Origin: Bacillota bacterium | GTDB lineage: Bacteria; Bacillota; Sulfobacillia; JAIMAT01 | NCBI GenBank assembly: GCA_029961055.1 | Contig: JASBVM010000012.1 | Span: 55,741 to 119,740 of the forward strand | Length of the DNA stretch: 64,000 nucleotides | Direction: 5' to 3' | Shown: positions 4,079-46,363 of the stretch, in pieces | Layout: every line of letters begins with the position of its first letter | Position numbering within the stretch: the stretch's first letter is position 1 | Made by a program: the position numbers and the translations under genes | Notes under the pieces: model-generated | What the model saw: only the letters and a program-made list of their open reading frames with translations | Told to the model about the DNA's origin: nothing | Databases searched by the model: none

Positions 4079-4187
4079 GGGCCGCAGAGGCGATCCGGCC
4101 GGCCTGAACGGGGTGAGCCCGGGGAGCCCTCGAAGGCCGCCCGGGCTTGCTGGGGGAAGGCGGCACCTCGTCCGCCGTCGCCCAGGC

Positions 4188-4328
4188 TCAGAGGGTCAGG
4201 GCGATGCCGAATGGCGGAGGAAGCTGGTCGGAGGCGACCCGGGTCGGGATCGCCGTCCAGCTCAGCAGCGCCGCCAGCGCCAGCCCGATGCCGGCCAGGG
4301 CGACGACCCGCCACGCCCGCCGCTTCAC
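4188..4328 (-). CDS. Unlisted 46-aa ORF; candidate exported signalling pro-peptide cognate to the upstream HTH-TPR regulator
   Basis: GTG start with GAGGTGA RBS 7 nt upstream. Product VKRRAWRVVALAGIGLALAALLSWTAIPTRVASDQLPPPFGIALTL has a basic N-terminus, hydrophobic core and a short C-terminal tail. GC3 is high. It sits 57 nt downstream of the regulator on the same strand. Confidence 0.35.
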   Translation of the reverse strand: MKRRAWRVVALAGIGLALAALLSWTAIPTRVASDQLPPPFGIALTL

Positions 4329-4385
4329 GCCGGGCTCACCTCGCTTCCGCTCGGGAGACTCCGGCCCGCGACAGGGATACCGTCC

Positions 4386-5672
4386 TCAGCGACGACCCTG
4401 GTGCCGTGCCTTCTGCCGCAGGTCCGCCGCGGGGGCGGAGCCGCTGCCGCTGCTCCTGCGGTAGCTGTCCAGGATCGATTCTATGATCCACCACACCTGA
4501 GGCTGCAGTTCATGCTGGAGCGCCTCGGCGGCCAGCCGGTACTGCGCCGTCGCCTCGGGCGCCGCCTGGCTGGCGGCGGCCACCTCGCCCAGCGCCAGGT
4601 GCGCCAGCGCGGCGTCGAGGCCGCTGGCACCGGCAAGGAGCGCCCGCTTGGCCGCCTTCTCCGCCTCCGGGAAGTCGCCGTCCAGAAGCGCCGCCCGCGC
4701 CGCCTCCGGCCAGAAGGAGGCAGCCCATTCCCGGGCGGTCCGCGGCTCGTGCAGCTCGAGGTAGGTGAAGATCCGCCGGGCCACGTGGAGACGGCCGGCG
4801 TCGGTCAGGGCGATGGCCACGTTGAGGAGGATGTGGGGGAGCAGGTCGTCGGCGCCCGCCTCCCGGGCCGCCCGGAGGGCCAGGCGCCCTTGGTGGAAGG
4901 CCTCCTCCGCCCTGCCCAGCCGGCGCAGCGCCACACCCAGGCCCATGCGGGCCCGAGCCTCGTCCCGGCCGGGTGCCTCGCCGGCCAGCATGGCCAACGC
5001 CCGCCGGTACCACCGCTCCGCCAGCTGCACCAGGCCGAGGGAGAGGACCACCGTGCCCAGGTTGATGGCGACTCGGGCCATCTCCTCGCCGGGGGCCTGC
5101 TCGCGCTGCGCCGTGTCGTAGGCGACGATATGGTGCTGGAGCGCCCGCTCCAGATCCGAGCGCTCGCCCGCGCTCAGCCCGAGGAGCTGCTCCGCGACGG
5201 CCTGGAGACGGAGCTCGCCCGCCGCCCGGGCCGACCGGCGGACGCTCTGCAGCTGCCGCCGCGCCCGCCGCCCGTCCCCCCAGCGGAGCTCGGCGTCGGC
5301 CGCCCGCAGCCGGACCTCGAGGGCCTGGCCGTAGGTCCCCCGCCGTCGCGCCAGGACGACCGCCCGGGCGAAGAGCCGCCGGGCCATCCGCGCGTGGCCC
5401 CGGCGGGCGAGCCAGACCGCCACCTCCGACAGGCTCGACTCGGAATCGACCGACTCCATCCAGACGGTGGCGATCCGCTCGGCCGGGAGCTCCAGGAGCT
5501 CGCTGATCGCCTCCAGCCGGCGAACCGGGGGGAGGCGGCGCCCGCTCTCCCAGCTGTCCCAGGTCTCCTCCGTGACGCCAAGCCGCCGCGCCAGGTCGGG
5601 AACCGCCCAGCTCGCCCTGCGCCGGGCCAGCGCCAGGAGGTCCCCCACCGCTCCGGCCGGTCGTTCGCCCAC
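4386..5672 (-). CDS. Transcriptional regulator with N-terminal XRE-type HTH and C-terminal TPR repeats (RNPP/NprR-like architecture)
   Basis: HTH segment GDLLALARRRASWAVPDLARRLGVTEETWDSWESGRRLP, followed by about 350 aa of TPR-like helical repeats. Start uncertain: GTG at 5672 or 5681, or ATG at 5795. Confidence 0.6.
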   Translation of the reverse strand: MGERPAGAVGDLLALARRRASWAVPDLARRLGVTEETWDSWESGRRLPPVRRLEAISELLELPAERIATVWMESVDSESSLSEVAVWLARRGHARMARRLFARAVVLARRRGTYGQALEVRLRAADAELRWGDGRRARRQLQSVRRSARAAGELRLQAVAEQLLGLSAGERSDLERALQHHIVAYDTAQREQAPGEEMARVAINLGTVVLSLGLVQLAERWYRRALAMLAGEAPGRDEARARMGLGVALRRLGRAEEAFHQGRLALRAAREAGADDLLPHILLNVAIALTDAGRLHVARRIFTYLELHEPRTAREWAASFWPEAARAALLDGDFPEAEKAAKRALLAGASGLDAALAHLALGEVAAASQAAPEATAQYRLAAEALQHELQPQVWWIIESILDSYRRSSGSGSAPAADLRQKARHQGRR

Positions 5673-5843
5673 CCAAGCCACCCCCGTCGTCCAGGGACAG
5701 GATCGAGGCGCCGTCGCTGGGTCCCCGTTGGAAACATCTTGACGCCAGAGCGCAGAGGGTGACAAGCGCAGACGACGGGAGACGGACCGTGACAAAAGAA
5801 GGGCGGCGTCCCGCGACGCCGCCTCATGGAGCCGCCCTTCGCC

Positions 5844-6422
5844 TCAGAAGCCGGGCATGCCCGCCATGGCCGGGAAGGCCTGCGCGGCGGGGCGCATGAT
5901 GTCGCTCTGGACCGGCGGCACGGGGTACCAGTTGTGGGCGTGCAGGTACTGGAAGAGCTCGTAGGCCATGTCGGCGTGGTCCTTGCACATGCCGAGCAGC
6001 GCCTGCCGGACCTGCGGGGTGGCCGCCTCCAGGCCGGCGTGGAGCGTCTCCGTCGCATGCCATTTGCACCGATCCAGGGAGTCGACGGCGACGGTCCGGT
6101 CCGAAGCGCGATGGTCGCGAAACTCGTTGGCCTGAAAGGGCTGGAAGCCGCCCTGGGGGTTCCAGCCCTGGTTGCCGAAACCGCCCCCGTATTGGCCGGT
6201 GTAGTTGAAGTCGGGCGCCGAGGACGGCGTCTGCCCGCTTTGGGCCAGGAAGTTGCGCAGGGTGTTGTAGTGCTGCTGGTGGGCGCGCAGGTGCCGCTCC
6301 AGGATGCTCCGCAGCTGCGGATCCTGGACGGCGTTGACGTCGACCATCAGCTTGTCGATGGCGGCGGCGTGACCGTTGAGGATCTCGGTCAGCGAAAGCG
6401 CTTCCTTTTGCGTGATGGGCAT
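5844..6422 (-). CDS. Spore coat protein, CotF/coat F domain family
   Basis: MPITQKEALSLTEILNGHAAAIDKLM...ERHLRAHQQHY...LLGMCKDHADMAYELFQYLHAHNWY is characteristic of the ferritin-like CotF family. GGAAAGGGG RBS. Confidence 0.75.
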   Translation of the reverse strand: MPITQKEALSLTEILNGHAAAIDKLMVDVNAVQDPQLRSILERHLRAHQQHYNTLRNFLAQSGQTPSSAPDFNYTGQYGGGFGNQGWNPQGGFQPFQANEFRDHRASDRTVAVDSLDRCKWHATETLHAGLEAATPQVRQALLGMCKDHADMAYELFQYLHAHNWYPVPPVQSDIMRPAAQAFPAMAGMPGF

Positions 6423-6547: not shown

Positions 6548-8392
6548 TCAGACGATGCGGACCTTGTACTGCCGCAGCCAGGCGTCCGTCTGGACCAGGT
6601 AGGCGAAGAGCTGGGCGCCGCCCAGCAGCTGCGAGAACCAGGCCGGGTCGAAGGAACGGCCGTCCTCCTCGATCAGGGCGCGGACGCGCGCCACGTCGAG
6701 GAGCGGTACCAGCGGGGAGTCGGAATCCTCCAGGATGGCTTCCAGCCGCCGGCGCACCTCCTGCCGGAAGCCGGGGTGGTGGCTCTTGGGATAGGGACTC
6801 TTCCTTCTGGCCAGGACCTCCTCGGGCAGGATGCCGCGCATGGCCAGGCGGAGGATCCCCTTTTCGCGTCCACCCGCCGTCTTCAGCCGCCAGGGGATGT
6901 TCCAGACGTATTGGACGAGACGGTGGTCGCAGAAGGGGACCCGGACCTCCAGGCCGACACGCATGCTCATGCGGTCCATCCGGTCGAGCAGGATGGGCAG
7001 GAAGCGGGTGATATTGATGTACGACATGGCCCGCATGCGGGCCTCTTCCTCCCCCTCCCCGGGAAGTGGCGGCACCTCGGCGAGCGCTTCGCGAAAGCGC
7101 TCGGCCGCGTACTCCAAGGGGCGGACCCGGCGCCGCACGTCCGGCGCCAGGAGTTCGGCCCGTTCGGCGATCTTCCTCACCCAGGGAAGGCTTGGCCCGT
7201 CCAGCGCGCGGGGATCGCGGAACCAGGGATATCCCCCGAAGACCTCGTCGGCCGCCTCGCCCACCAGGGCGACGGTCGCCTCCCGTCTCACCTCGCGGCT
7301 GAAGAGGTAGAGCGAGGCGTCCACGTCCGCCATGCCGGGCAGATCCCGCGCCAGGAGGGCGGGCCGGAGCGCCGCCGCCAGCTCGCCGCTGTCGATGAGG
7401 AAGTCCCGGTGCCGCGTGGCGAAGGTCTCGGCCACCCGGTGGGCCCAGGGGCCGTCGGCATCGGGCTGGAAGGCGTTCGGCCGGAAGTAGCGGTCGTTCC
7501 CCACGTAGTCGACGCTGAAGGTCTGAAACGGGCCGCGGCCTTCGCGCCGGAAGGCGGCGGCCGCGAAGGCGGTGACCGCGCTGGAGTCGAGCCCGCCGGA
7601 GAGGAGGGCGCCGAGGGGCACGTCGGAGACCAGCTGCCGGCGGACCGCGTCCTCCAGGAGCTCCCGCACGCGGGCCGCTGTCGCCTCCAGCGAGTCGACG
7701 TGCGGCCGGCTCTCCAGCCGCCAGTAGCGGCGAAGCTCGACGCCCCGGCGGTCGAAGCGGAGCCAGCTGCCCGGCCGGAGCTCCTCGACGCCACGGAAGA
7801 CGCCCAGGCCCGGCGTCCGGCTCGGGCCCATGACGAAGATCTCGGCCAGGCCTTCCCCGTCGATCTCCGCCTCCATCGCCGGGTGGGCGAGGAGCGCCTT
7901 GATCTCCGAGCCGAAGAGGAGCCCGCCGCCGCGCCGCGCGAAGAAGAGCGGCTTGACGCCGAGCGGGTCGCGCGCCAGGAAGAGCGCCTCTTCCTCCTCG
8001 TCCCAGATGGCGAAGGCGAAGATCCCGTTGAGGCGCTCCGGTGCCCGCTCCCCCCACTCCATGTAACTGGCCAGGAGCACCTCGGTGTCGGAGTGGCCGC
8101 GGAAGCTGTAACCGCGGGCCAGGAGTTCGCCCCGCAGCTCCTCGGTGTTGTACAGCTCGCCGTTGTAGGTGAGGACGTAGCGGGCGCCGTGCCGCTCGCG
8201 CACCATGGGCTGGACGCCCACCTCGGGGTCGACCACGATCAGCCTGCGGTGGGCCAGCGCGGCGTGCGGCGAGAGCCAGAGGCCGGAATCGTCGGGTCCC
8301 CGGCAGGCCAGGGTGGCCCCCATCGCCTCCGCCACTCCAGCTTCCTGGCGGAGATCCCGCTCCCAGTCCACCCACCCTGCGATTCCGCACAC
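6548..8392 (-). CDS. asnB: Asparagine synthase (glutamine-hydrolysing)
   Basis: N-terminal MCGIAG nucleophile; SGGLDSS PP-loop; full-length 614 aa. Confidence 0.9.
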   Translation of the reverse strand: MCGIAGWVDWERDLRQEAGVAEAMGATLACRGPDDSGLWLSPHAALAHRRLIVVDPEVGVQPMVRERHGARYVLTYNGELYNTEELRGELLARGYSFRGHSDTEVLLASYMEWGERAPERLNGIFAFAIWDEEEEALFLARDPLGVKPLFFARRGGGLLFGSEIKALLAHPAMEAEIDGEGLAEIFVMGPSRTPGLGVFRGVEELRPGSWLRFDRRGVELRRYWRLESRPHVDSLEATAARVRELLEDAVRRQLVSDVPLGALLSGGLDSSAVTAFAAAAFRREGRGPFQTFSVDYVGNDRYFRPNAFQPDADGPWAHRVAETFATRHRDFLIDSGELAAALRPALLARDLPGMADVDASLYLFSREVRREATVALVGEAADEVFGGYPWFRDPRALDGPSLPWVRKIAERAELLAPDVRRRVRPLEYAAERFREALAEVPPLPGEGEEEARMRAMSYINITRFLPILLDRMDRMSMRVGLEVRVPFCDHRLVQYVWNIPWRLKTAGGREKGILRLAMRGILPEEVLARRKSPYPKSHHPGFRQEVRRRLEAILEDSDSPLVPLLDVARVRALIEEDGRSFDPAWFSQLLGGAQLFAYLVQTDAWLRQYKVRIV

Positions 8393-13320: not shown

Positions 13321-13484
13321 ACCCGCCCAGCCTGTCCCAGGTTTTCCGGCGGTCGTCCGCGTCGTCGTTTCCCTTTGAGTCGGCCCCTTCGCCCCAATAG
13401 AAGGATTTCGTTCTTCGCCGGTCGAATCCACGTTTCACAGCGCCGCCGGTCACGGCGGTGACGCTTCCTCGGGGAGGGAGAGCT

Positions 13485-15209
13485 GTGACGACGCCGTTCT
13501 GGTTCGTGGTGGCGGCCCTGGTCTTCTACGCCATCGCCTACCTGGTCTACGGCCGCTGGTACGATCGGACGGTCTGGAGACCGGACCCGAAGCGGACCAC
13601 GCCGGCCCACATGTACATGGATGGCGTGGAGTTCTTCCCGGCGAGCCGCTATGTGCTCTGGGGGTACCAGTTCAAGAGCGTCGCCGCCCTGGGACCGATC
13701 CTGGGCCCCTTCATCGCTCTCCAGTATGGCTGGCTTCCCGCCTTGATCTGGATCATCTTGGGCAACTTCTTCATCGGGTGGCTTCAGGACTACGGGGCCA
13801 TCATGGTCTCGGTGCGGAACAACGGACGCTCCTTCGGCCCCATCGCGTACGAGTTCACGGGCGCCAGCGGGCGCAGCACCCTGCTCGGTTTCATCCTGTT
13901 CTACCTGCAGATGATCTCCGCCACCTTCGTCTTCTTCATCGCCCAGTTCTGGAACTCGCTCCCCGGCACCTTCGCGGCCACCGTAGGGGTCATCATCACG
14001 GCGGTCATCGTCGGCCAGCTGATGTACAAGGTTCGCCTCAACGTGGGGTTGACCACGTTGATCGGTCTCGTCCTGGTCGCTCTCTCCGTGGTCGCCGGGG
14101 TCTACCTCCGGACCCCCACCGATCCCTTCGGCGCCTGGTCGATCCCGTTCTGGGCGGCCCTGGTCGGCGTCTTCCTCTTCGTCGCGTCGGTGGTACCGCT
14201 GCCCTCGCTGATCCAGCCGATGAACTTCATCAGCTTCTTCCCCACCTTCCTCGCGGTGCTGCTGATCATCGTCGGCGGGCTGCTCTCGCCGGTCTTCCAC
14301 GTCCCCCTGCAGCAGCCGGCCTGGAAGGGCTTCTGGTCGCCGAACACCGGGCCGCTCTGGCCCATGATGTTCCTGGCCATCGCCTGCGGCGCCATCTCCG
14401 GCTGGCACAGCCTGGTGGGCAGCTCCACCACGGCCAAGCAGCTGGACCTGGAGACCGACGCGCACCCCGTGGGCGCGGGCGCCATGCTGTCGGAGGGCCT
14501 GGTGGCGCTCGCCTCGCTGGCCGCCTACATGGTGCTGGCACCCGGCGAGATCACCAAGAACACCACCGCCTGGGTCGCGGGAGCGATCCGCCTGACGGAA
14601 GGCTTTCTCGGCGGACCGGGAGCGGCCGCCTTCCTGGCCACTTTCTTCGGCGTCTCGCTGGTGCTCTACGCCATCACGGTCCAGTCGCTGGTCACCCGCT
14701 TCTGGCGCCTCATCTCCGCCGAGGTCGCCGGCCAGGGGCGCTTCGCCGTGCTCGGCCAGAAGCACGTGGCCACCTTCCTCGGCATCCTGATCGCCTGGCT
14801 CTTCGCCGTCTCGGGCTCGTGGAACAACCTCTGGCTCTACTTCGGCGGCTCCAACCAGCTGCTGGCCGGCTTGGCGCTGATGCTGGTCTCCATCCACCTG
14901 GCCAGGGCGCGGAGCCAGACCGGCTGGACCTTCTGGCCGGCCATGTTCATGATCGTCACCACCATCTTGGGCCTCGCCTACCAGACCTACATCTTCGCGA
15001 AGGCGGTCTACACGGGGAAGACGCTGGTCCAGCCGCCCCTGGGCAACATCGCTTGGGCGGCACACACCCTGGACGGCATCTTCACCGTGGTGGGCGTGGT
15101 GCTGATCGTCCTCGGCGTCCGCATGGCCATCATGACGCTCCGCTCGTACTTCGCAGCGCGGGCACGCCCGGTCTCCATGGTGGGCGAGTCGGCCAGCCCG
15201 GCGCGCTGA
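13485..15209 (+). CDS. cstA: Carbon starvation protein A (peptide/pyruvate transporter CstA family)
   Basis: 575-aa polytopic protein with the full-length CstA pattern (WGYQFKS..LGPI.GP..A.Q.GWLPA..WI..G); GTG start after GGGAGGGAG. Confidence 0.9.
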   Translation: MTTPFWFVVAALVFYAIAYLVYGRWYDRTVWRPDPKRTTPAHMYMDGVEFFPASRYVLWGYQFKSVAALGPILGPFIALQYGWLPALIWIILGNFFIGWLQDYGAIMVSVRNNGRSFGPIAYEFTGASGRSTLLGFILFYLQMISATFVFFIAQFWNSLPGTFAATVGVIITAVIVGQLMYKVRLNVGLTTLIGLVLVALSVVAGVYLRTPTDPFGAWSIPFWAALVGVFLFVASVVPLPSLIQPMNFISFFPTFLAVLLIIVGGLLSPVFHVPLQQPAWKGFWSPNTGPLWPMMFLAIACGAISGWHSLVGSSTTAKQLDLETDAHPVGAGAMLSEGLVALASLAAYMVLAPGEITKNTTAWVAGAIRLTEGFLGGPGAAAFLATFFGVSLVLYAITVQSLVTRFWRLISAEVAGQGRFAVLGQKHVATFLGILIAWLFAVSGSWNNLWLYFGGSNQLLAGLALMLVSIHLARARSQTGWTFWPAMFMIVTTILGLAYQTYIFAKAVYTGKTLVQPPLGNIAWAAHTLDGIFTVVGVVLIVLGVRMAIMTLRSYFAARARPVSMVGESASPAR

Positions 15210-15610: not shown

Positions 15611-15663
15611 CCGGATCGCAACGTCCAGCGTCCGGCGAGATGAGATCACCGGAGGTGAACCCC

Positions 15664-16662
15664 TTGAAGCCGGCTGGGCTCAAAGCCTACTTCGACGCAC
15701 ACCCCGAGATCCGCGTCGCCATCTTCGCCGGCAAGGGCGGGCTGGGAAAGACGACGTCCAGTTCCTCCCTCGCCTACTACCTGGCCACCGAGAAGAAACG
15801 GAAGACGCTTCTCTTCAGCACCGACCCCCAGGCCTCGCTGTCGGACATCTTCGAGCAGAACTTCTTCGGCAAGGGCGTCATCGAGGTGATCCCCAACCTC
15901 TTCGTGGTCGAGATCGACGCCGACCGTCGGGTGGCCGAGTACCAGGCCGGCGTCAAGCAGAAGATCCGCGACATGTACGGCCTGGCGGAACTGCCCCGGG
16001 AGATCGAGGAGTACATCGACTCCTCCTCCGCCGAGCCGTCCATGTACGAATCGGCCACCTACGACGCCATGGCCGAGCTGGTGGCGGCCAACGAGTTCGA
16101 CATGTACATCTTCGACATGCCGCCCTTCGGTCACGGCGTGCGCATGGTCGCCATGGCCGAGATCCTCTCCAAGTGGGTGGAGAAGATCACCGAGGCACGC
16201 AGCCAGGTGGCGGAGTATGAGCAGGTCGCCGCCTCGCTCAAGGGCGAGCGCGCGCAGGAAGATGCCATGATGGCCGAGCTGCTCGACATCCGCCAGCGGA
16301 TCACCACCTTCACCGACCTGATCACCAACCAGACCAGCACCGGTTTCTTCATGGTGCTGATCCCGGAACAGATGGCGATCCTGGATACCGACCGGGCCCT
16401 GGCCATGTTCTCCGAGCTGGGCATCCAGCTCTCCGGCCTGATCGTCAACCAGGTCTACCCGCCCGAGCTGCTGGAGCAGCCCAACCTGAGCGAGTTCCTG
16501 CGCAACCGCCTGGAGGGCCAGCGTCCCTACCTCCAGGAGATCGAGCGCAAGTTCGGCGAGAGGGTTCTCTCCGTGGTACCGATGTACACCCGTGAGCCGA
16601 AGGGGCTGGAGATGATCGCGCGGGCCAGCGCCGACCTGATGGAGTGCAAGGTGGCTGTCTAG
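15664..16662 (+). CDS. ArsA/GET3-family anion-transporting-type ATPase, half-size (one nucleotide-binding domain), copy 1
   Basis: P-loop AGKGGLGKTT and DMPPFGHG (DTAPTGHT-like switch II). TTG 15664 preferred (GGAGG 8 nt upstream; N-terminus then aligns with copy 2); ATG 15640 is the alternative. Confidence 0.85.
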   Translation: MKPAGLKAYFDAHPEIRVAIFAGKGGLGKTTSSSSLAYYLATEKKRKTLLFSTDPQASLSDIFEQNFFGKGVIEVIPNLFVVEIDADRRVAEYQAGVKQKIRDMYGLAELPREIEEYIDSSSAEPSMYESATYDAMAELVAANEFDMYIFDMPPFGHGVRMVAMAEILSKWVEKITEARSQVAEYEQVAASLKGERAQEDAMMAELLDIRQRITTFTDLITNQTSTGFFMVLIPEQMAILDTDRALAMFSELGIQLSGLIVNQVYPPELLEQPNLSEFLRNRLEGQRPYLQEIERKFGERVLSVVPMYTREPKGLEMIARASADLMECKVAV

Positions 16663-16720
16663 ACGACCCGGGCGGATGCGCTCCCGCGCCCGACCCAGGA
16701 AGGGAGGACGATCCCCGACC

Positions 16721-17746
16721 ATGCAGAGCCTGAGCGAGTTCCTCGAGGAGCATCCCAACCTGCGCTTCGTCTTCACCGGCGGGAAGGGCGGGGTCGGCAA
16801 GACCGTCAGCGCCGCCGTCCTGGCCTACCACTTCGCCCGGCAGGGCAAGCGGACGCTGCTGGCCTCGCTCAACCCCGTCCACTCCCTCTCCAGCCTCTTC
16901 GGCCAGGACCTCTCCGGCGGCCAGGTGCGGCCGGTCCAGGGAGTCGACAACCTCTTCGCCATCGAGGTGAACACCGAGGACGCGGTCCAGCGCTACCGCG
17001 ACAGCGTCAGCACCCGCATCCGGGAGTTCCTGCGCTACGCCGACATCCCGGTGGACGCCCGTCCCTTCATCGACATCGCCATGACCAACCCGGCCTTCGA
17101 GGAGTCGGCGATGTTCGACAAGATGACCGACATGATGCTGATGCAGTCCGGCGAGTACGACCGCATCGTCTTCGACACGGCCGCCGTCGCCAACGCCGTC
17201 CGGCTGATCGGCCTCTCCAAGATCTACGGCCTCTGGCTGGGGCGGCTGATCGAAAGCAGGAAGGAGGCGCTCTCGCTGCGCGTCCAGCTCTCCTTCCGCA
17301 AGGAGAAGGTGATGGAAGAGGTCCGGCAGGATCCGATGATGGCCGACCTGATCGGCATGAACGACCGCTTCGAGAGGGTGAAGGGGCTCCTGGTCGATCC
17401 GGAGACCACCGCCTTCTTCTTCGTCACGCTGCCGCTCTCGCTGCCCATCTCGGTGGTCAAGCGCTTCATCGAGATGGTGCGCGCCTACGACATCCCGGTG
17501 GGTGGCGTGATCGTCAACGAGGTGATCACCCGCGACGCGCTCGGCGAGGAGCCGGACGAGTACCTGCGCAACAAGTTCGCCGAGCAGGGGAGCTACCTGC
17601 AGACCATCCAGGCCGACCTCGGCCCGCTGGTCCGCACCTACCTGCCGCTCTACCCGCGCGAGGTGGTCGGCCTGGAGGCGGTCGACCGGGTGGCCGAGGA
17701 CATGTTCCGGCCCAGCCAGGACCTGGCCGCCGAGCTGCCCGCCTGA
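16721..17746 (+). CDS. ArsA/GET3-family ATPase, half-size, copy 2 (degenerate switch II)
   Basis: P-loop GGKGGVGKT is intact, but the DTAPTGH position reads DTAAVANA. GGAAGGGAGGA RBS; 58 nt after copy 1. Confidence 0.85.
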   Translation: MQSLSEFLEEHPNLRFVFTGGKGGVGKTVSAAVLAYHFARQGKRTLLASLNPVHSLSSLFGQDLSGGQVRPVQGVDNLFAIEVNTEDAVQRYRDSVSTRIREFLRYADIPVDARPFIDIAMTNPAFEESAMFDKMTDMMLMQSGEYDRIVFDTAAVANAVRLIGLSKIYGLWLGRLIESRKEALSLRVQLSFRKEKVMEEVRQDPMMADLIGMNDRFERVKGLLVDPETTAFFFVTLPLSLPISVVKRFIEMVRAYDIPVGGVIVNEVITRDALGEEPDEYLRNKFAEQGSYLQTIQADLGPLVRTYLPLYPREVVGLEAVDRVAEDMFRPSQDLAAELPA

Positions 17747-18907: not shown

Positions 18908-19270
18908 TCAGTCCACGTGGGGCAGCTCGTCCACGATGTCGAACTCCTGGGAGAGCCGCTCCCGCCAGCCCGGCAGCCCCTCCAGGGCATAGGGGAGCAG
19001 GCGCAGGCCGACGGAGGCGTTCATCAGCGGCAGGCCGAGAAATTCGCCGAAGATCATCAGGCGGATCAGGTCGTCCAGCTTCCTGGCCTGCTCGCGGGTC
19101 TCGCGGTAGGTGTCGTAGAAGAAGAGGCCCCAGGCGAACTGGCGGAGTCCCTCCCGCCAGCCGGGACGCCCGCGCCGGCCGCCGTCTCCCGTCTCAGTCC
19201 CCGCCGTCCTCCCCACCTCCCGGAGCCGCCGCCCCCCGGGCCCGGGCGTTTCCATCTCTCCCGCGCTCAT
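18908..19270 (-). CDS. Small protein (120 aa), paralog of 15299-15610
   Basis: ATGA start/stop overlap with the upstream gene. The C-terminal region LRQFAWGLFFYDTYRETREQARKLDDLIRLMIFGEFLGLPLMNASVGLRLLPYALEGLPGWRERLSQEFDIVDEL is homologous to the plus-strand small protein. Confidence 0.55.
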   Translation of the reverse strand: MSAGEMETPGPGGRRLREVGRTAGTETGDGGRRGRPGWREGLRQFAWGLFFYDTYRETREQARKLDDLIRLMIFGEFLGLPLMNASVGLRLLPYALEGLPGWRERLSQEFDIVDELPHVD

Positions 19271-20049
19271 GCCGGCGTGCCGAAGACCTGGTCCCGCCAG
19301 CCGCGGAAGTACCGCTCGCTGGCGAAGTTGAGCACCCGCCGCGCCCGCCGGAAGTGGGCGGCCAGGCTCTCCAGCACCCCCCGCCACCCGGAGAGGCTGG
19401 CTCCTGCCTCTTCCGAGGCCATCTCGTAGTAGCGGCGCCCCTCCGCCTCCAGCCAGTCCAGCGGCGTCGCAGAGAGGTTGGCCACGTGCTCGGCGAAGAC
19501 GCCGCTCAGGAAGAGCGCCAGGTCGCCCACCCGCCGGTAGACCAGGAAGCGGTCGCGGGGATCGACCATCCCCGCCAGCTCCTTCATCCGCCGCAGGTCC
19601 AGCTCGCTCACCCGGATGCGGCGAGGACCGCGCGGCGTCCGCACCCAGATCCGGCCGCTGGCGGCGCGGGTGAACGAGGCCAGGAGGAGCGCCAGATACT
19701 CCCGGCGCTCCGGATCGCCCAGGAACCGGACCAGCTCGGGCGTGTCGAAGAGCGGGACGCGCATCCGCGGCCCCGCCAGCTCGCTGGCGTAGCTGGTGCT
19801 GGCCAGCTCCCGCAGCGCCTGCCGCAGGAAGACCTCGAAGAGAAGGAAGGGTGTCACCCTGGCCAACCCTTCCTCCACCCGCGAGAGCCTCTCGAAGAGC
19901 CGCGGGTTGTCGAGCATCACGTCCACCAGCTCCGGCGCCCGGCGCAGCCGCTCCACCGCGGAGGGATCGTCCCCCTGCCCCGCCGCCTCCACCAGGAAGC
20001 GCAGGTCTCGCTCGCTCAGATGCTCCAGAAGGAGCGGCACGGCCGCCAT
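19267..20049 (-). CDS. Hypothetical protein (260 aa)
   Basis: Balanced composition (MAAVPLLLEHLSERDLRFLVEAAG...); translationally coupled to the downstream small paralog; no recognised domain. Confidence 0.5.
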   Translation of the reverse strand: MAAVPLLLEHLSERDLRFLVEAAGQGDDPSAVERLRRAPELVDVMLDNPRLFERLSRVEEGLARVTPFLLFEVFLRQALRELASTSYASELAGPRMRVPLFDTPELVRFLGDPERREYLALLLASFTRAASGRIWVRTPRGPRRIRVSELDLRRMKELAGMVDPRDRFLVYRRVGDLALFLSGVFAEHVANLSATPLDWLEAEGRRYYEMASEEAGASLSGWRGVLESLAAHFRRARRVLNFASERYFRGWRDQVFGTPA

Positions 20050-20092
20050 GGTCCATCCCCCCGGCTCCGACCTTTTGCGGGTTAGAGCCAGT

Positions 20093-21100
20093 TTACTCCG
20101 CTTTCTGCCCGCCGTCGAAGCGCCAGATGCCGCCTTCCCGGACCATCCTGGCGGTGTAGACGACGTTTTCCGTCATTCCCTCCAACTGGAAGGTCCCCTG
20201 CAGCCGCACCTCCGCCCGCTGGCCCTCGCCGGTCTTGGCGTCGCCTCCCACCGGCCGGCCCGCCTCCGCGGTGTAGCCCCGGTAGCTCCCCAGGCCCTCC
20301 GCCCAGGCGGTGACGTCCACGGCCGCGGGCTTCCCGTACCGGGCGCGCAGCCCGGGTCCCATCAACCGCCACATGGCCTCGCGGTCGGGGATGGCCGCGA
20401 TCCAGAGATCCAGCGCCTCCTCCGGTGCCAGACCCCGCACCAGCTCCGAATCCAGCGGAGGCAGAAGCCGCCGGAAGAGGAAGCCCTCCCCCGTGAAGGG
20501 ATGCTCCTCGCTGCCCACCCGCGCCCCCTCCACCCGCAGCTCGACGCCCTTGACGCCCTGGACGGAGGCGGCCGTCAGCGCGATCTGGTCGAGGAGCGTC
20601 CCGACCGCCAGCGTCCCGCCCGCCTGCTCCAGCTCGCCGGAGAAGTCGAGCACCGCCACCGGCCGGGCCACCTCCACCCCGAGCAGCCGGGTCCCCCGGG
20701 GCAGGGCGCTGGCCCACCCGGCCCGCCGCTCTTCCTCGGTCGGCCCGGAGAGAAGCGCCTCCATCGCCGCCCTCAGCCGCGCGTGCACGTCGTCCGGGCG
20801 CACCCCCTCCGGCAGCGGGCGGCGGACCGGGGCGAGGACGGGCCGCTGTCTCCCGCCTCCGCTCCCGTGCACGAAGTAGACCGCCAGGGCGGGCTCGCCC
20901 TCGGGTGCGGGCCCTTTCCGGGAGGGGGGCGCCCCTTGGCTGGCGCCTCCGGGAGCCGGTCCCGTCCCCGCCCCCGTCCCCGACCCCACCCCGACCCCCT
21001 GCCCGCAACCGGCGCCCAGCAGGAGAAGGGCGAGGAGCAGCGCGCTCCCCAGGCGCCGGCCCGCCCGTCGCCATCCGCCTTTCCGATGCCGCACGTCCAT
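20093..21100 (-). CDS. Lipoprotein with GerMN (sporulation/germination GerM-like) domain
   Basis: Signal peptide plus lipobox LLLLGAGC; low-complexity linker; LAVYFVH...G.. and a second beta-rich repeat typical of GerMN domains. Confidence 0.65.
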   Translation of the reverse strand: MDVRHRKGGWRRAGRRLGSALLLALLLLGAGCGQGVGVGSGTGAGTGPAPGGASQGAPPSRKGPAPEGEPALAVYFVHGSGGGRQRPVLAPVRRPLPEGVRPDDVHARLRAAMEALLSGPTEEERRAGWASALPRGTRLLGVEVARPVAVLDFSGELEQAGGTLAVGTLLDQIALTAASVQGVKGVELRVEGARVGSEEHPFTGEGFLFRRLLPPLDSELVRGLAPEEALDLWIAAIPDREAMWRLMGPGLRARYGKPAAVDVTAWAEGLGSYRGYTAEAGRPVGGDAKTGEGQRAEVRLQGTFQLEGMTENVVYTARMVREGGIWRFDGGQKAE

Positions 21101-21187
21101 CCCTCCGCGCTCCTTGGACGCGCCAGCGGCCTGCGGGTTCCCCGCGCCGGAGCCGGAGACCTCCTCTCCCGCCGGCCCAGGTTATCT

Positions 21188-22552
21188 ATGGTAGGATACG
21201 AAGCGACCGTTCACGCTCGGACCAACCCCTTTCCTCCCCCCGGAGGTGTTCGCTCGACGGACAAGCGGCCGTCCCTGCGCCTGAGCGGAGCCTTCTCCGC
21301 CTTGCGCCACCGGAACTTCCAGCTCTTTTTCGCAGGTCAGACCGTCTCGCTGGTGGGCACCTGGATGCAGAACGTGGGCCAGGGCTGGCTCGTCCTCCAG
21401 CTGAGCGACTCTCCCTGGGTGCTGGGCATGGTCAGCGCGCTCCAGTTCGTGCCCTTCCTGATCTTCTCGCTGGTGGCGGGGGCGCTGGTCGACCGGATGG
21501 CGAAGCGGCGCCTCCTGGTGGCCACCCAGAGCACCCTCGCCCTTCTCGCCCTGGTCCTGGGGCTTCTGACGCTCTCCGGCCAGGTGCGCGTCTGGCACGT
21601 GATGGTGCTCGCCTTCCTGACCGGGACGGTGCAGAGCTTCGACAACCCGGGGCGGCAGGCGTTCCTGGTCGAGATGGTCGGGCGGGAAGACCTGATGAAC
21701 GCCATCTCGCTCAACTCCTCCACCTTCAACGGCGCCCGCCTGGTGGGGCCGGCCGTGGCGGGGCTGGTCATCGGCGCGGCGGGAGCAGGCTGGGCCTTTC
21801 TGCTCAACGCGGCCAGCTTCGTCGCCGTGATCGCCGGCCTCCTGATGATGCGCCTCGAGCCCGGCCGCGAACGGCCCGTCCACGCCCCGCTGCTCAAGGA
21901 AGTGGTGGGCGGCCTGGATTACGTCCGCAAGACCCCGGCGGTGCTGGTCACCATCCTCCTGATCGGCGTCATCAGCACCTTCGCTCTCAACTTCAACGTC
22001 CTGATGCCGGTCTTCGCGCGCTACACGCTCCGGGCGGGCCCGGAGATCTACGGCTACCTCATGTCCGCCATGGGCTCGGGCGCGCTGGCGGGCGGCCTGG
22101 TCCTGGCCTACCTCTCGCGCTGGGGTCCGCGGCGGGAGATCCTCCTGGGCGGGGCGCTCCTCTTCACCACCGGCGTCACCGTCCTGGGCTTCGTCCGGCA
22201 GTTCGTGCCGGCGATGCTCCTCCTCTTCCTGATCGGCTTCGCCATGATCGGCTACACCGCCACCTCCAACAGCACCATCCAGGTGACGGTGCCCGACCAG
22301 CTGCGCGGGCGCGTGATGAGCCTCTACGTGATGGTCCTCAACGGCGTCGCCCCCGTGGGCGCGCTCTTCGTCGGCGGGCTCGCCCAGCGCTGGGACGCGG
22401 GGGCCGGTTTCCTGGTCGGGGGCGCCGTCAGCCTGGCGGCCGTGCTGGCCGCCCTGGCGCTGCGCAGGCGCTGGGACCCCGACCTCCGGCCGGCACCTGC
22501 GGTGCGCGGGGGCGCGGCAGGCTGCCCGCGCCAGGGGGAGGGGGGCGCCTGA
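21188..22552 (+). CDS. MFS transporter (EntS/MFS_3-like)
   Basis: FSALRHRNFQLFFAGQTVSLVGTWMQNVGQGWLVLQLS N-terminal MFS_3 signature; 12 TM. Start at ATG 21188 is uncertain. Confidence 0.8.
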   Translation: MVGYEATVHARTNPFPPPGGVRSTDKRPSLRLSGAFSALRHRNFQLFFAGQTVSLVGTWMQNVGQGWLVLQLSDSPWVLGMVSALQFVPFLIFSLVAGALVDRMAKRRLLVATQSTLALLALVLGLLTLSGQVRVWHVMVLAFLTGTVQSFDNPGRQAFLVEMVGREDLMNAISLNSSTFNGARLVGPAVAGLVIGAAGAGWAFLLNAASFVAVIAGLLMMRLEPGRERPVHAPLLKEVVGGLDYVRKTPAVLVTILLIGVISTFALNFNVLMPVFARYTLRAGPEIYGYLMSAMGSGALAGGLVLAYLSRWGPRREILLGGALLFTTGVTVLGFVRQFVPAMLLLFLIGFAMIGYTATSNSTIQVTVPDQLRGRVMSLYVMVLNGVAPVGALFVGGLAQRWDAGAGFLVGGAVSLAAVLAALALRRRWDPDLRPAPAVRGGAAGCPRQGEGGA

Positions 22553-25337: not shown

Positions 25338-27164
25338 TTGGACGGCAACCCCGACAAGGAACGGGCCCGGGGCGCGGTGCCCGAGCGGAACGCCACCGAT
25401 CCGCGCTACCGCTGGCGGGTGGAGGATCTCTTCCCCGACGAGGAGAGCTGGGAGAGGGCGCTGCAACAGGCGGAGGCGACGATTCCCCGGCTGGCGGCGC
25501 TGCGCGGCCGGCTCGCCGGCGGCGCCGGCGAACTGCTCGCCGTCCTCCGCGCGGCCGACGAGCTGGAGCTGGCGCTGGAGCGGCTCGTCGTCTACGCCAA
25601 GCTGCGCATGGACGAGGATCAGCGCGTCAGCCGCCACCAGGAGATGATGGACCGCGCCATGGCGGTGGCCACCCGGGCGGCCGAGGCGGGGGCCTTCATC
25701 GAGCCCGAGATCCTGGCCATCGACCCCGAGCGGCTCCGGCGCTGGCAGGAGGAGGAGCCCGGCCTCGCCCCCTACCGCCAGCGCTTGAGCGTGCTGGAAC
25801 GCCTCCGCCCCCACGTGCGCTCGGCCGAGATGGAGGAGCTGCTGGCCTCGGCCGGCCAGATGGGCCAAGCCCCGGGGCGGATCTTCGAGGCCGTCCAGTA
25901 CGCCGACATGCGCTTCCCCACCATCCGTGACGCGCGCGGCAAGGAAGTGGAGATGAGCCACGGGCGGTACACCCGCCTCCTGGAGGAGCCCGACCGGGAG
26001 GTCAGGCGGCGCGCTTTCGCCGCCATGGGCGAGACGCTGGCCCGGCACCGCCACACCCTGGCCGCCTCGCTCCAGGCGGAGGTGCGCAAGAACGTCTTCT
26101 TCGCCCGGGCGCGGCGCTACGGCTCGGCGCGGGAGGCGGCGCTGGCGCCCCACCAGATCCCGGTCTCGGTCTACGACAACCTGGTCCAGACCGTCCGTCG
26201 CCACCTGGACCTGCTCCACCGCTGGGTGGCGCTCCGGAAGCGGGCGCTGGGCCTGGACGAGATCCACCTGTACGACGTCTACGTCCCCGTCGACGCCGGC
26301 GAGGAGCGCCCCATCCCCTACGAGGAAGCGGTCCGCCTGGTGGAGGACGGCCTCCGCCCGCTGGGCGAGGGGTACCTGCGCGATTTCGACGCCGGCGTGC
26401 GCGGCGGCTGGGTGGACGTCTATGAGAACCGCGGCAAGGCGTCCGGCGCGTACACCAGCACCGTCTACGGGACACACCCCTACGTCCTGCTCAACTACCA
26501 GGAGAACCTGGACAGCGTCTTCACGCTGGCCCACGAGATGGGCCACGCCATGCACAGCTTCTACTCCAACGCCCGCCAGCCGTACCCCACGTCGCAATAC
26601 GCCCTCTTCGTGGCCGAGGTGGCCTCCACCCTGAACGAGTCGCTCCTCATCCAGGAGATGCTGGAACGGACCCGGGACCCCATGGAGCAGCGCCGGCTCC
26701 TGGACCGCTACCTGCAGGCCTTCCGGGCGACGCTCTTCCGGCAGACGCTCTTCGCCGAGTTCGAGCAGCGGATTCACGAGCTGGTCGAGTCCGGCGGCGC
26801 GCTCCAAGCCGAGAACCTCTCCACGATCTACCACGACCTGAACGTCGACTACTTCGGGCCGGAGATGGTGATCGACGCCGAGATCGACCTGGAGTGGGCC
26901 AGGATCCCCCACTTCTACATGAACTTCTATGTCTACCAGTACGCCACCGCCTTCTCCGCCGCCACCGCCCTGGCCCAGCGGATCCGCCGCGAAGGCGAGC
27001 CGGCGCAGCGCAGATACCTCGACTTCCTCGCCAGCGGCAGCTCGCGCGACCCCCTGGACCTGCTCGAGGCCGCTGGCGTCGACCTGCGCCGGCCCGAGCC
27101 CATCGAAGAGGCGCTCGCCTTCTTCTCCCGGCTTCTCGACCGCTTCGAGGCAACGGGGCTATGA
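25338..27164 (+). CDS. pepF: Oligoendopeptidase F (M3B family)
   Basis: HEMGHAMH zinc motif with downstream E; full-length M3B architecture. TTG start after GGAGGGTGAGG. Confidence 0.9.
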   Translation: MDGNPDKERARGAVPERNATDPRYRWRVEDLFPDEESWERALQQAEATIPRLAALRGRLAGGAGELLAVLRAADELELALERLVVYAKLRMDEDQRVSRHQEMMDRAMAVATRAAEAGAFIEPEILAIDPERLRRWQEEEPGLAPYRQRLSVLERLRPHVRSAEMEELLASAGQMGQAPGRIFEAVQYADMRFPTIRDARGKEVEMSHGRYTRLLEEPDREVRRRAFAAMGETLARHRHTLAASLQAEVRKNVFFARARRYGSAREAALAPHQIPVSVYDNLVQTVRRHLDLLHRWVALRKRALGLDEIHLYDVYVPVDAGEERPIPYEEAVRLVEDGLRPLGEGYLRDFDAGVRGGWVDVYENRGKASGAYTSTVYGTHPYVLLNYQENLDSVFTLAHEMGHAMHSFYSNARQPYPTSQYALFVAEVASTLNESLLIQEMLERTRDPMEQRRLLDRYLQAFRATLFRQTLFAEFEQRIHELVESGGALQAENLSTIYHDLNVDYFGPEMVIDAEIDLEWARIPHFYMNFYVYQYATAFSAATALAQRIRREGEPAQRRYLDFLASGSSRDPLDLLEAAGVDLRRPEPIEEALAFFSRLLDRFEATGL

Positions 27165-34000: not shown

Positions 34001-35731
34001 GTGAACGCCCTGCGTCGCAGCGCGACCGTCCTGGCGCTGGTCGCCGGCATCGCGCTGGAGTGGCTTTGGGTGGCGGCCCTTCACCGCCTGGGCCGGAGGG
34101 AGCAGGCGAGCCGCGTCGCCGCCCGTCTCCTGCCGGTCCAGGCGCGGCGGCTGCGCCGCGCCGCCCTGCGCCTCCAGGGGCTCCTGATCAAGGTCGGCCA
34201 GTTCCTGAGCACGCGGATCGACGTCTTGCCCGAATCCTTCACCAGCGAGCTGGCCGCCCTCCAGGACGTCGTCCCGGCCGCACCCTGGGAGGCGATCCGG
34301 CTTCGCCTGCAACAGGCTTACGGCCCTCCGGACTCGTGGCCTTTCGCGCGCGTGGAGCAGGAAGCGGTGGCCGCCGCCTCGCTGGCCCAGGTCCACCGCG
34401 CCTGGCTCGACGACGGGCGCCTCCTGGCGCTCAAGATCCTCCGGCCCGGCATCGAGCGGATGGTCGAGACCGACCTCTGGTCGCTGGGCGTGGCCGCCCG
34501 CCTGGCCGCCCGCTGGACCTCGTGGGGACGGCGCTACGACCTGCTCCGGATCTACCAGGAGTTCCGCGAGACCACCCTGGCCGAGCTCGACCTGCTCGGC
34601 GAGGCGGACCGCGCGCTCCGCTTCGCCGCCGACTTCGCCGGCCGGCGAGGCATCCGCGTCCCCCGCATCCACCGGGAGCTCTCCACCCGCACCACCCTGG
34701 CGATGAGCTACGAGGAAGGGATCCCCTGCGACGACGTGCGCGCCCTGGAAGCGGCGGGCATCGACCCGCGCCGGGTCGCCCACCGCCTGGTCCGCGCCAC
34801 CATGCGCCAGATCCTGGATCACGGCTTCTTCCACGCCGACCCCCATCCGGGCAACGTCTTCGTCACCTCCGGGGGCGCCCTGCTCTACCTCGACTTCGGC
34901 ATGATGGGCGAGGTCCGCCCCGAGGACCGGGAGGGGGTGGCCCACCTGCTCCTCTCGCTCCTGGGGCGGGATCCCGAGGGGATCGCCCAGGCGGTGGTCG
35001 AGCTGGACTTCGTCCGCCCGGGTGTCGACCGTGAGGCGCTTCGCCAGACCATGGCCTTCGCCATGGAGCGCCTCCTCTCCGCCAACACCGCCGAGGACCC
35101 CGAGGCCTTCGTCCGCTTCACCCACGAGATGGGCGACTTTCTCTACGCGCATCCCTTCCAGTTGCCGGCCCGCTACCTCTTCCTCGGGCGGGCGCTGGGC
35201 ATGGTCGCCGGCACCTTCACCAGGCTGGCGCCGGGAGAGGACTTCATGGGCACCGTCCTGGAAGCGGGCCGCGAGCTCCTGCTGGGGAACGGCACCATCG
35301 CCCGCGGACTGGCGGGCGCCCTCCTCCCCGTGCGCGCCGGCTCCGCCGCGACGGCCGGCGCGGATCCGCCCTCCTCCCGCCCCGCAGGCGCCGGTGACCG
35401 CCTCCCCGGGCAGGTGCTCCTCGGCATCCTCCAGCCGTGGCTCCGCCTCCCCCGCACGCTGGAGACGATCCAGCGCACCCTCTCGGCGCAGGAAGCGCGG
35501 CAGAACCCCGCCTTCGCGGCCCATGCGGCCGAGGCCGGGGCCCGCACCCGGCCGGTCGAAGCGCGGCTGGTCGACCGCCTCGTCTGGGCCTGGTGGGCCG
35601 GCCTCCTCGGCCTCGTCCTCCTCTTCGGCCCGGCCGCCGGCGGGCTCGCCGCCGAGCCGCACTTCCGCCTGGGCGCCGCGGTGGCGGAGGCGGGAGCCCT
35701 CTTCCTGTGGCTGAGGACCTACCGGCGCTAG
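34001..35731 (+). CDS. ABC1/UbiB-family atypical protein kinase
   Basis: LIKVGQFLSTRIDVLP, ...AAASLAQVHRA..., HADPHPGN catalytic motif, C-terminal TM helices; GTG start. Confidence 0.85.
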   Translation: MNALRRSATVLALVAGIALEWLWVAALHRLGRREQASRVAARLLPVQARRLRRAALRLQGLLIKVGQFLSTRIDVLPESFTSELAALQDVVPAAPWEAIRLRLQQAYGPPDSWPFARVEQEAVAAASLAQVHRAWLDDGRLLALKILRPGIERMVETDLWSLGVAARLAARWTSWGRRYDLLRIYQEFRETTLAELDLLGEADRALRFAADFAGRRGIRVPRIHRELSTRTTLAMSYEEGIPCDDVRALEAAGIDPRRVAHRLVRATMRQILDHGFFHADPHPGNVFVTSGGALLYLDFGMMGEVRPEDREGVAHLLLSLLGRDPEGIAQAVVELDFVRPGVDREALRQTMAFAMERLLSANTAEDPEAFVRFTHEMGDFLYAHPFQLPARYLFLGRALGMVAGTFTRLAPGEDFMGTVLEAGRELLLGNGTIARGLAGALLPVRAGSAATAGADPPSSRPAGAGDRLPGQVLLGILQPWLRLPRTLETIQRTLSAQEARQNPAFAAHAAEAGARTRPVEARLVDRLVWAWWAGLLGLVLLFGPAAGGLAAEPHFRLGAAVAEAGALFLWLRTYRR

Positions 35732-44556: not shown

Positions 44557-44644
44557 GTGAAACCGGCCGGGAGAACGCCGGCGGGCGCAGGAGGGAGGGG
44601 ATGGCTCCCCGGTCGCGGCCGCCGAGCAGGGAGGGGTGGCTGCC

Positions 44645-46363
44645 ATGGATGAGACGACGCGCTCCGTGGAAGAGGCTGCCGCGATCTACGGCTCCGCGCC
44701 TTGGGCGAGCGCTTACCCGCCCGACGTGCCGCTGCACCTGGAGTACCCGCAGCTCAGCCTGGCCGACCTGCTGGAGCAGGCGGTCCGCCAGGCGCCCGAG
44801 CGCGAGGCGGTCCGCTTCTTCGGCCGCGGCACCCGCTACGGGGAGCTGGGCCGGCGCGTGCGGCGCTTCGCCGCCGCGCTCTATGCGCGGGGGGTCCGGA
44901 AGGACGAGCGGGTGGCGATCATGCTGCCCAACGCGCCGCAGCTGGTGGTCGCCTACTTCGCCACGCTCCGGCTGGGCGGGGTGGTGACCCTGGTCAACCC
45001 GCTCTACACGCCCCGCGAGATCCACCACCAGCTGGTCGACTCCGGCGCCCGCTGGCTGATCGCCCTCGACCTGACCTGGCCCCGCCTGGAGGAGGCGGTG
45101 CGGGGGTCTGCGGTGGAGCGGGTGATCGTCGCCGCGGTGGAGGATGAGCTCGGTTTCCCGCTCGGCTTCCTGGCGCGGCTCCGGAAGCCGAAGCTGGAGA
45201 TCCGGCCGACGCTGGCCGGGGTCCCGGTGGAGCGCTTCCCCGACCTGGAGCGGGAGCAGTCGCCGGAGGCACCGCCGGTCCAGGTGGCCCCGGAAGACCT
45301 GGCGCTCCTGCAGTACACCGGCGGCACCACCGGCGAGCCGAAGGGGGCGATGCTCACCCACCGGAACCTGGTGGCCAACGCGGTCCAGTGCGTCGCCTGG
45401 GTGGGGGCCGAGGGGGTCCAGCGGATCCTGGGGGTCCTTCCTCTCTTCCACGTGTACGGGCTGACGACGGTGCTCAACTACGGCATCGCCAGCGCCTCGA
45501 CGCTGATCCTCCTCCCCCGCTTCCAGGTGAAGGAGGTGCTGGCCACCATCCAGAAGGAGCGGCCCACCGTCTTCCCGGGCGCGCCCACCATGTACGTGGC
45601 CCTCAACACCTCTCCCGACGTCCACCGCTACGACCTCTCCTCCATCCGGGCCTGCATCTCGGGCTCGGCCCCGCTCCCGGTGGAGGTGCAGAAGGAGTTC
45701 GAGGCGCGCACGGGCGCCCAGGTGGTGGAGGGCTACGGGCTGACCGAGGCCTCGCCGGTCACCCACGCCAACCCCTTCCGCGGCGGACCGGTCCGCATCG
45801 GCACCATCGGCATCCCCTGGCCGGACACCGAGGTGCGCGTCGTCGACGAGGCGCACCGCCCGGTCCCGCCGGGGGAGGTGGGCGAGCTGGCGGTGCGCGG
45901 TCCGCAGGTGATGAAGGGCTACTGGAACCGCCCGGAGGCGACGGCGCAGGTGCTGGACGAGGAAGGCTGGCTCTACACGGGCGACCTGGCGGTGATGGAG
46001 GAGGACGGCTACTTCCGCATCGTCGACCGGAAGAAGGACGTGATCATCGCCTCCGGCTTCAACGTCTACCCGCGGGAGGTGGAGGACGTGCTCCACCAGC
46101 ATCCCGCCGTGCTGGAGGCGGTGGTGGTCGGCGTCCCCGACCCCTACCGCGGCGAGACGGTCAAGGCGTTCGTCCGGCTCCGGCCCGGCGCCAGCGCCAC
46201 CCAGGAGGAGATCGTCGCCTTCTGCCGCGAGCGGCTGACACCCTACAAGGTGCCGAAGCTGGTGGAGTTCCGCGACGAGCTCCCCAAGAGCACCGTCGGC
46301 AAGCTCCTCCGCCGCGTGCTGGCCGAGGAGGAGCGGCAGAAGAGCCGCCGGAGCGAAGCGTGA
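44645..46363 (+). CDS. fadD: Long-chain-fatty-acid--CoA ligase
   Basis: YTGGTTGEPKGAMLTHRNL AMP-binding motif, ...GYGLTE..., ...KVPK... C-terminal motif. ATG 44645 after GGGAGGGG (GTG 44636 is the alternative). Confidence 0.9.
   Translation: MDETTRSVEEAAAIYGSAPWASAYPPDVPLHLEYPQLSLADLLEQAVRQAPEREAVRFFGRGTRYGELGRRVRRFAAALYARGVRKDERVAIMLPNAPQLVVAYFATLRLGGVVTLVNPLYTPREIHHQLVDSGARWLIALDLTWPRLEEAVRGSAVERVIVAAVEDELGFPLGFLARLRKPKLEIRPTLAGVPVERFPDLEREQSPEAPPVQVAPEDLALLQYTGGTTGEPKGAMLTHRNLVANAVQCVAWVGAEGVQRILGVLPLFHVYGLTTVLNYGIASASTLILLPRFQVKEVLATIQKERPTVFPGAPTMYVALNTSPDVHRYDLSSIRACISGSAPLPVEVQKEFEARTGAQVVEGYGLTEASPVTHANPFRGGPVRIGTIGIPWPDTEVRVVDEAHRPVPPGEVGELAVRGPQVMKGYWNRPEATAQVLDEEGWLYTGDLAVMEEDGYFRIVDRKKDVIIASGFNVYPREVEDVLHQHPAVLEAVVVGVPDPYRGETVKAFVRLRPGASATQEEIVAFCRERLTPYKVPKLVEFRDELPKSTVGKLLRRVLAEEERQKSRRSEA

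Follow-up and report, generated by a model that had tools for sequence, protein, structure and literature searches.

We describe a candidate peptide-signaling cassette in a 64,000-nucleotide (nt) stretch of DNA, hereafter the window, from a Bacillota metagenome-assembled genome (MAG; NCBI GenBank assembly GCA_029961055.1, contig JASBVM010000012.1, positions 55,741 to 119,740 of the forward strand; GTDB lineage Bacteria; Bacillota; Sulfobacillia; JAIMAT01). The window has a GC content of ∼73%, and the cassette lies on its minus strand. It consists of a gene for a regulator that joins a helix-turn-helix (HTH) domain to a tetratricopeptide repeat (TPR) array, followed by a small open reading frame (ORF) whose product has the build of a secreted pro-peptide. 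We give roughly even odds to the reading that these genes form a functional RRNPP-like receptor and pro-peptide cassette, part of a small lineage-specific family that also yielded a Rap-like paralogue without the HTH. The case for this reading is built on architecture, gene arrangement, and peptide properties, and not on demonstrated homology to an RNPP family.

The regulator and its small ORF

The two genes and their parts are listed below in window coordinates.

4386–5672, minus strand: regulator/receptor gene, 429 codons including the stop (428 amino acids, aa), TGA stop at 4386–4388
5472–5648, minus strand: XRE-type HTH domain, regulator residues 9–67 (Pfam HTH_31, E 6.8e-9)
4392–5441, minus strand: TPR-like superhelix of about nine hairpins (18 helices), regulator residues 78–427; the last two hairpins are of low confidence
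4329–4385, minus strand: 57-nt spacer between regulator and small ORF, with ribosome-binding site (RBS) GAGGTGA at 4336–4342 and a 7-nt gap before the GTG
4188–4328, minus strand: small ORF of 46 aa, candidate secreted pro-peptide, GTG start at 4326–4328, TGA stop
4257–4328, minus strand: N-terminal export-like segment, MKRRAWR (net charge +4) and then hydrophobic VVALAGIGLALAALLSW, from hydropathy and charge analysis
4209–4241, minus strand: conserved motif RVASDQLPPPF, residues 30–40 of the small-ORF product, with candidate pheromone core D-x-L-P-P-x-F and six-residue tail GIALTL

The regulator is identical to NCBI MDI3316942.1, annotated as a "helix-turn-helix transcriptional regulator" of a Bacillota MAG. 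Its GC content at third codon positions (GC3) is 0.93, and its codon-usage log-odds, from a model trained on 28 confident genes within the window, amount to +131 nats (0.31 per codon). Besides HTH_31, the N-terminal domain matches Pfam HTH_19 and HTH_3 and a PHROG repressor HTH, while TPR_12 matches at E 5.9e-12, exceeding the Pfam cut-off. The AlphaFold model, built from a four-sequence alignment, has a predicted local distance difference test score (pLDDT) of 81 and a predicted template-modeling score (pTM) of 0.74, and places a five-helix HTH (residues 8–72) ahead of 18 further helices. A family profile made from four sequences matches designed consensus TPR proteins at E 1e-34, indicating near-consensus TPRs. 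The regulator, taken to be a cytoplasmic receptor, has no signal peptide. An alternative GTG start at 5681, three codons earlier, would give 431 aa and is the one called on Logan contig L005. A 469-aa version starting from a TTG at 5795 was rejected, as GC3 is at background level upstream of about 5680.

An earlier note on this DNA had described a 429-aa regulator with an XRE HTH and a long TPR array; the architecture holds, and the length becomes 428 aa once the stop codon, which had been counted, is left out. The same note had located a 46-aa ORF on the regulator's strand, 57 nt beyond it, that opens with GTG behind a 7-nt spacer and the RBS GAGGTGA, and all of these elements are present as it stated. 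Regulator and small ORF share one reading frame, with one TGA and 19 sense codons between them. Read-through or a sequencing error could thus fuse the two; the drop of GC3 in the spacer and the RBS favor separate translation.

Because long spurious ORFs are frequent in DNA this GC-rich, it matters whether the small ORF, with product MKRRAWRVVALAGIGLALAALLSWTAIPTRVASDQLPPPFGIALTL, is real. Its GC content by codon position (GC1 0.72, GC2 0.60, GC3 0.91) follows the pattern of genuine genes here, and a GC3 of at least 43/47 would arise with a probability of 0.004 at 75% GC. On codon usage the ORF scores +13.8 nats (log-odds), which is 0.30 per codon compared with 0.31 for the regulator. None of 1,140 wrong-frame 46-codon controls reached this score, which falls at the 27th percentile among windows of true genes; each of the remaining five frames of this DNA is negative. 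The ORF is annotated by PGAP as a hypothetical protein (QJR14_04925 / MDI3316941.1, adjoining MDI3316942.1, MAG "Bacillota bacterium") and is also called by the gene caller used on contig L005, which is identical to the window. Taking together codon usage, the RBS, the two annotation pipelines, and a homologous ORF at a paralogous locus, we consider the small ORF genuinely coding.

The alternative, a chance open frame in a 75% GC genome, is accordingly given very little probability. It could draw on the very long spurious ORFs found here, such as one of 549 aa on the strand opposite the regulator, and on a peptide-profile search of 5.8 billion proteins in which the small-ORF product matched itself only. 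Against it stand log-odds on par with real genes, an RBS of canonical sequence and spacing, its recognition by both pipelines, and the homologous ORF in the same position at the paralogous locus. The 549-aa ORF itself (4113–5762, plus strand) and other very long overlapping ORFs are shadow ORFs of the kind seen in 75% GC DNA, and their codon-position GC pattern is wrong for coding. A scan of metagenome DNA for R-V-A-D-x-L-P-P-x-F gave at least 120 matches, none of them within a small ORF whose N-terminus was export-like, and these were judged to be chance.

The product of the small ORF has a hydrophobic stretch of 20–22 residues and a neutral tail. A heuristic predicts that it inserts with the N-terminus inside and the C-terminus outside, consistent with Sec targeting. 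The length of the stretch fits a cleavable signal peptide and an uncleaved membrane anchor alike. There is no canonical AXA site near the end of the hydrophobic segment, and the best (−3, −1) site, VAS↓DQ, lies 9–11 residues beyond it.

A paralogous locus filed under the same MAG

An exhaustive phmmer search of 1.84 billion representatives returned three specific relatives of the regulator, P0002 (E 9e-29), P0004, and P0008, with 38–41% identity across the TPR region; the other matches were generic TPR/HTH proteins. In a word-indexed search the regulator found itself only and, with the four-sequence family profile, one relative (P0004) besides. Scans of GTDB genomes (two) and JGI metagenomes for receptor relatives gave only a locus in a second MAG, Bu54, which is the source of P0004. 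Members of the P0002 and P0008 clusters are placed by NCBI under the window's own MAG (MDI3317827; QJR14_07750; QJR14_09185). The P0002-type gene occurs on two Logan contigs, L002 and L004, the former from run SRR24392716, which also gave a contig identical to the window.

This paralogue is a TPR-only protein without an HTH, ∼41% identical to the regulator, whose start aligns to about regulator residue 77. Upstream of it lie ∼250 nt of intergenic DNA and then an unrelated gene. Only 23 nt after its stop codon, and behind a purine-rich RBS, is a 58-aa ORF with product MKAIVAACAVLAAAAGLALLAGHFGAAARVADFLPPLFSPNVRVADFLPPIFSATAVL. Its product opens with MK and continues with a hydrophobic stretch of ∼20 residues, the same build as in the window. 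The motif is present in two tandem pseudo-repeats, RVADFLPPLF and RVADFLPPIF, compared with the single RVASDQLPPPF of the window, and the six-residue hydrophobic tail reads SATAVL compared with GIALTL. The similarity of the two peptides has a BLASTP E of 0.13, with p ∼0.004 against 23-mers from the six-frame translation of the window and p ∼0.03 against shuffles. A lipoprotein interpretation of the 58-aa product (VAAC, residues 5–8) was rejected, as the Cys lies ahead of the hydrophobic core.

Between two strains (L002 1–1368 compared with L004 1247–2609), the paralogous peptide ORF carries 0/173 substitutions, the TPR gene 2/1029, and the intergenic DNA upstream of the TPR gene 5/137. Each of the two substitutions in the TPR gene is non-synonymous (R to M in one case, R to Q in the other). 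The coding signature of the small ORF in the window, and a homologous small ORF with a duplicated motif at the paralogous locus, answer a concern raised in the earlier note, namely that the small ORF might prove unconserved or non-coding.

Phr propeptides provide a documented parallel: their pheromones are tandemly duplicated, C-terminal extensions of 6–18 residues occur, and only the pheromone and an N-terminal Met-Lys are conserved (Felipe-Ruiz et al., PMC11343458). The tandem motif of the paralogue's small-ORF product and the six-residue tail and Met-Lys start of both products match these features.

A different role for the small-ORF product would be that of a membrane-anchored partner, neither cleaved nor re-imported, that tethers or sequesters the TPR regulator at the membrane or shows its LPPxF tail to an extracellular partner. 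The 20–22-residue hydrophobic segment and the missing AXA site near its end would suit such a protein, but by the positive-inside rule the net +4 N-terminus and neutral tail should put the motif outside, away from a cytoplasmic receptor, and the same RVA tripeptide before the duplicated motif units suggests proteolytic release. We hold this role to be rather improbable, though less so than a chance frame.

Relation to RRNPP systems

The published RRNPP signature comprises a TPR-matching receptor of 250–500 aa, a propeptide of 10–100 aa, a gap of −60 to 400 bp between them, and a Sec signal (Bernard et al. 2023, PMC10075063). With 428 aa and a TPR_12 match the regulator lies within these bounds, as does the small ORF with 46 aa at 57 nt downstream on the same strand, so that the pro-peptide-like build and the RNPP-type architecture and size proposed in the earlier note agree with the signature. 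The HTH expected of an RRNPP(A) receptor is present in the regulator (HTH_31) and absent from the paralogue. Pairing of receptor and propeptide is kept at the one paralogous locus, where the motif is duplicated, and is absent at the Bu54 relative, the motif match having p ∼0.004–0.03. Signature-level candidates already number in the thousands, and 21 new subfamilies have been reported. If the cassette is indeed a functional receptor and pro-peptide pair, it would plausibly represent a new subfamily of RRNPP-like systems.

Clan B of this family (NprR, QssR, and Rap) has non-degenerate nine-TPR folds, and the Rap subfamily arose through loss of the HTH (PMC12700828). An architecture of nine TPRs plus an HTH is common to the window regulator and NprR of the NprR-NprX system (Bacillus cereus group; clan B, as is QssR of Clostridium). 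A family relationship at the sequence level was not detected: NprR 5dbk is reached with the family profile at E 0.79. The window system further differs from NprR-NprX in the ∼73% GC of its genome and in its peptide motif (D-x-LPP-x-F); it has no evident adjacent target gene like nprA, and we found no evidence of phosphatase function in it. Compared with Rap-Phr (Bacillus, phages, and plasmids), the HTH loss in the paralogue parallels Rap, whereas the window receptor retains its HTH. In the alignment the paralogue has nothing ahead of its first TPR and no counterpart of the N-terminal three-helix-bundle effector domain found in Rap, and the profile score of RapJ equals that of unrelated TPRs of O-GlcNAc transferase (OGT). 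PlcR of the PlcR-PapR system (Bacillus cereus group; clan A) has 285 aa and five TPRs, with the pheromone at the extreme C-terminus of PapR; no sequence homology to it was detected, and the resemblance of the peptide to PapR may be coincidental. Generic bacterial XRE-TPR regulators and peptide-binding TPR scaffolds (LGN/Pins, APPBP2, MalT domain III), most of the latter eukaryotic, lack an adjacent secreted small ORF, and LGN and APPBP2 also lack an N-terminal HTH, unlike the window regulator.

In a functional cassette, the cytoplasmic receptor would also be the transcription factor, with the pro-peptide gene adjacent and the two genes presumably co-transcribed. The peptide would be inserted or exported via Sec with its C-terminus outside the cell, and extracellular proteases would cut it at either end, leaving a short, proline-rich peptide that contains (D)xLPPxF. 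This peptide would build up with cell density, be re-imported by an oligopeptide permease (Opp), and bind the concave groove of the TPR superhelix, altering how the receptor oligomerizes or how its HTH binds DNA and thereby switching a regulon. The HTH-less paralogue might act through Rap-like protein-protein interaction or serve as a peptide sink.

Several observations weigh against a functional RRNPP-like cassette. The search for RNPP family membership that the earlier note had proposed came back empty, as Pfam, NCBIfam, and PHROGs assign the regulator to generic HTH/TPR families and to none that is RNPP-specific, and phmmer of the regulator against PDB sequences returned no RNPP member. The family profile does reach RapJ at E 1.1e-6, but OGT TPRs score equally and consensus-designed TPRs far better. 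The similarity of the two peptides, taken alone, appears modest, and the hydrophobic segment could be a permanent membrane anchor. No Opp permease genes occur within the window, and no operator was identified upstream of the regulator. The evidence for pairing, moreover, comes from a single pair of paralogues that NCBI assigns to one MAG, and duplication of both genes together could account for their linkage with no ligand-receptor function involved. Finally, the relative in Bu54 is TPR-only, is shorter, and has no such peptide ORF within 6 kb:

L001 5352–6831: locus of Bu54 relative P0004, 276 aa, preceded by a 152-aa gene without a Pfam hit

The 3' end of this gene overlaps by 4 nt a convergent GATase_3 gene (6828–7574), which lies beside a MurT-type ligase gene, and P0004 appears to be a family member that has been shortened and has no peptide. 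The NsdA family of TPR-like regulators (Streptomyces; NCBIfam NF053720) matches the regulator at 16.5 bits (E 0.0045), under its 75-bit cut-off.

These points are shared in part by the most serious competing explanation, in which the regulator is an ordinary XRE-TPR transcription factor whose TPR domain binds some other protein or signal, its neighbor is a co-transcribed single-pass membrane protein and not a ligand, and the shared motif reflects duplication of a two-gene block. Generic family matches, a hydrophobic stretch long enough for a transmembrane helix, the peptide-less Bu54 locus, and pairing evidence drawn entirely from one genome all suit this explanation. So do the predicted folds: the top matches of the regulator model are protein-binding TPR scaffolds, and its structural similarity to Rap, NprR, and PlcR, although real, does not exceed that to eukaryotic TPR proteins. 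On the other side, conservation between the small ORFs is centered on a short extracytoplasmic motif that is tandemly duplicated in the paralogue, while the receptors are only ∼41% identical, and this is the pattern of pheromone propeptides and not of membrane anchors. The close same-strand coupling at both loci (57 and 23 nt) likewise argues against an ordinary regulator. We regard that explanation as a possible one, distinctly less probable than an RRNPP-like cassette.

A more far-reaching proposal is that uncultured, spore-forming Bacillota of high GC (∼73%) carry a deep-branching RRNPPA lineage not sampled before, which the cassette represents. Its receptor would combine near-consensus TPRs, nine in number, with an HTH, its pheromone would be of a proline-rich (D)xLPPxF type, and a paralogue would have lost the HTH independently, as Rap did. 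We put this forward tentatively, as something we would doubt sooner than expect. As to host range, the cassette does not fall outside Firmicutes, the host being a Bacillota MAG, while an occurrence outside the well-studied low-GC classes is plausible.

Genomic surroundings and significance

The elements that flank the two genes are as follows.

5844–6419, minus strand: Coat_F spore-coat gene directly upstream of the cassette (Coat_F, E 5.8e-22)
5802–5823, minus strand: strong intrinsic terminator of the Coat_F gene, a 9-bp stem with 8 GC pairs and a T-run; 5' boundary of the two-gene unit
5673–5801, minus strand: presumed promoter/leader of the regulator, with lower GC3 and direct repeats TTGTCAC (two copies) and TCTGCGCT (two copies)
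4116–4147, no strand assigned: GC-rich hairpin between the small ORF and a convergent glycerate kinase gene, an inverted repeat with 16-nt arms that are 81% complementary

Downstream, the unit is limited by the convergent glycerate kinase gene. The hairpin in between is a possible bidirectional terminator, a reading made weak by the absence of a T-run. No convincing sigma-70 promoter or operator-like inverted repeats were found upstream of the regulator or the small ORF. The Coat_F gene supports a spore-forming organism. A role of the regulator in sporulation or competence had also been suggested, and we found no link to either; the upstream Coat_F gene is set apart by its terminator. The surroundings are ordinary chromosomal housekeeping genes, and no signs of mobile elements were seen in the window.

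An oligopeptidase F gene (25338–27164, plus strand; Peptidase_M3 and M3_N) lies 20 kb from the cassette. PepF of B. subtilis, when overexpressed, degrades Phr-type signaling peptides. The window also encodes a CstA carbon-starvation (peptide/pyruvate) transporter (13458–15209, plus strand), followed by two tandem ArsA-type ATPases (15640–17746), and a fatty-acid beta-oxidation cluster (44636–52442, plus strand) with acyl-CoA synthetase, a fused 3-hydroxyacyl-CoA dehydrogenase/enoyl-CoA hydratase, thiolase, and acyl-CoA dehydrogenase.

Two gene calls elsewhere in the window overlap other features. ARAGORN places a tRNA-Gly(TCC) (35450–35529, minus strand) inside the 3' part of a 576-aa ABC1-kinase ORF (34001–35731, plus strand) whose Pfam domain stops at residue 331, which means that the ORF was called too long or that the overlap is genuine. 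In a 918-aa ORF (19796–22552, plus strand), the MFS_3/MFS_1 domain is limited to residues 498–890, and the N-terminal half has no family match and overlaps a 260-aa minus-strand ORF (19267–20049). The start of the 918-aa ORF is probably over-called.

The immediate impact of the cassette is limited because it is one more signature-level candidate, from a MAG without a cultured host. If functional, it would bring a little-known lineage of high-GC Bacillota into the range of peptide quorum sensing through cytoplasmic receptors, with LPPxF as a new pheromone motif. The cassette and its paralogue would then be a second case of an HTH-bearing receptor giving rise to HTH-less, Rap-like paralogues with tandemly duplicated pheromones. 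With TPRs that are unusually consensus-like, the receptor might serve as a point of reference when the RRNPPA family, which evolves fast, is rooted; PMC12700828 leaves undecided between five and nine TPRs for the ancestor. Should the lineage prove to be deep-branching, it could provide an outgroup or early branch with which to root RRNPPA and settle the choice between a five- and a nine-TPR ancestor.

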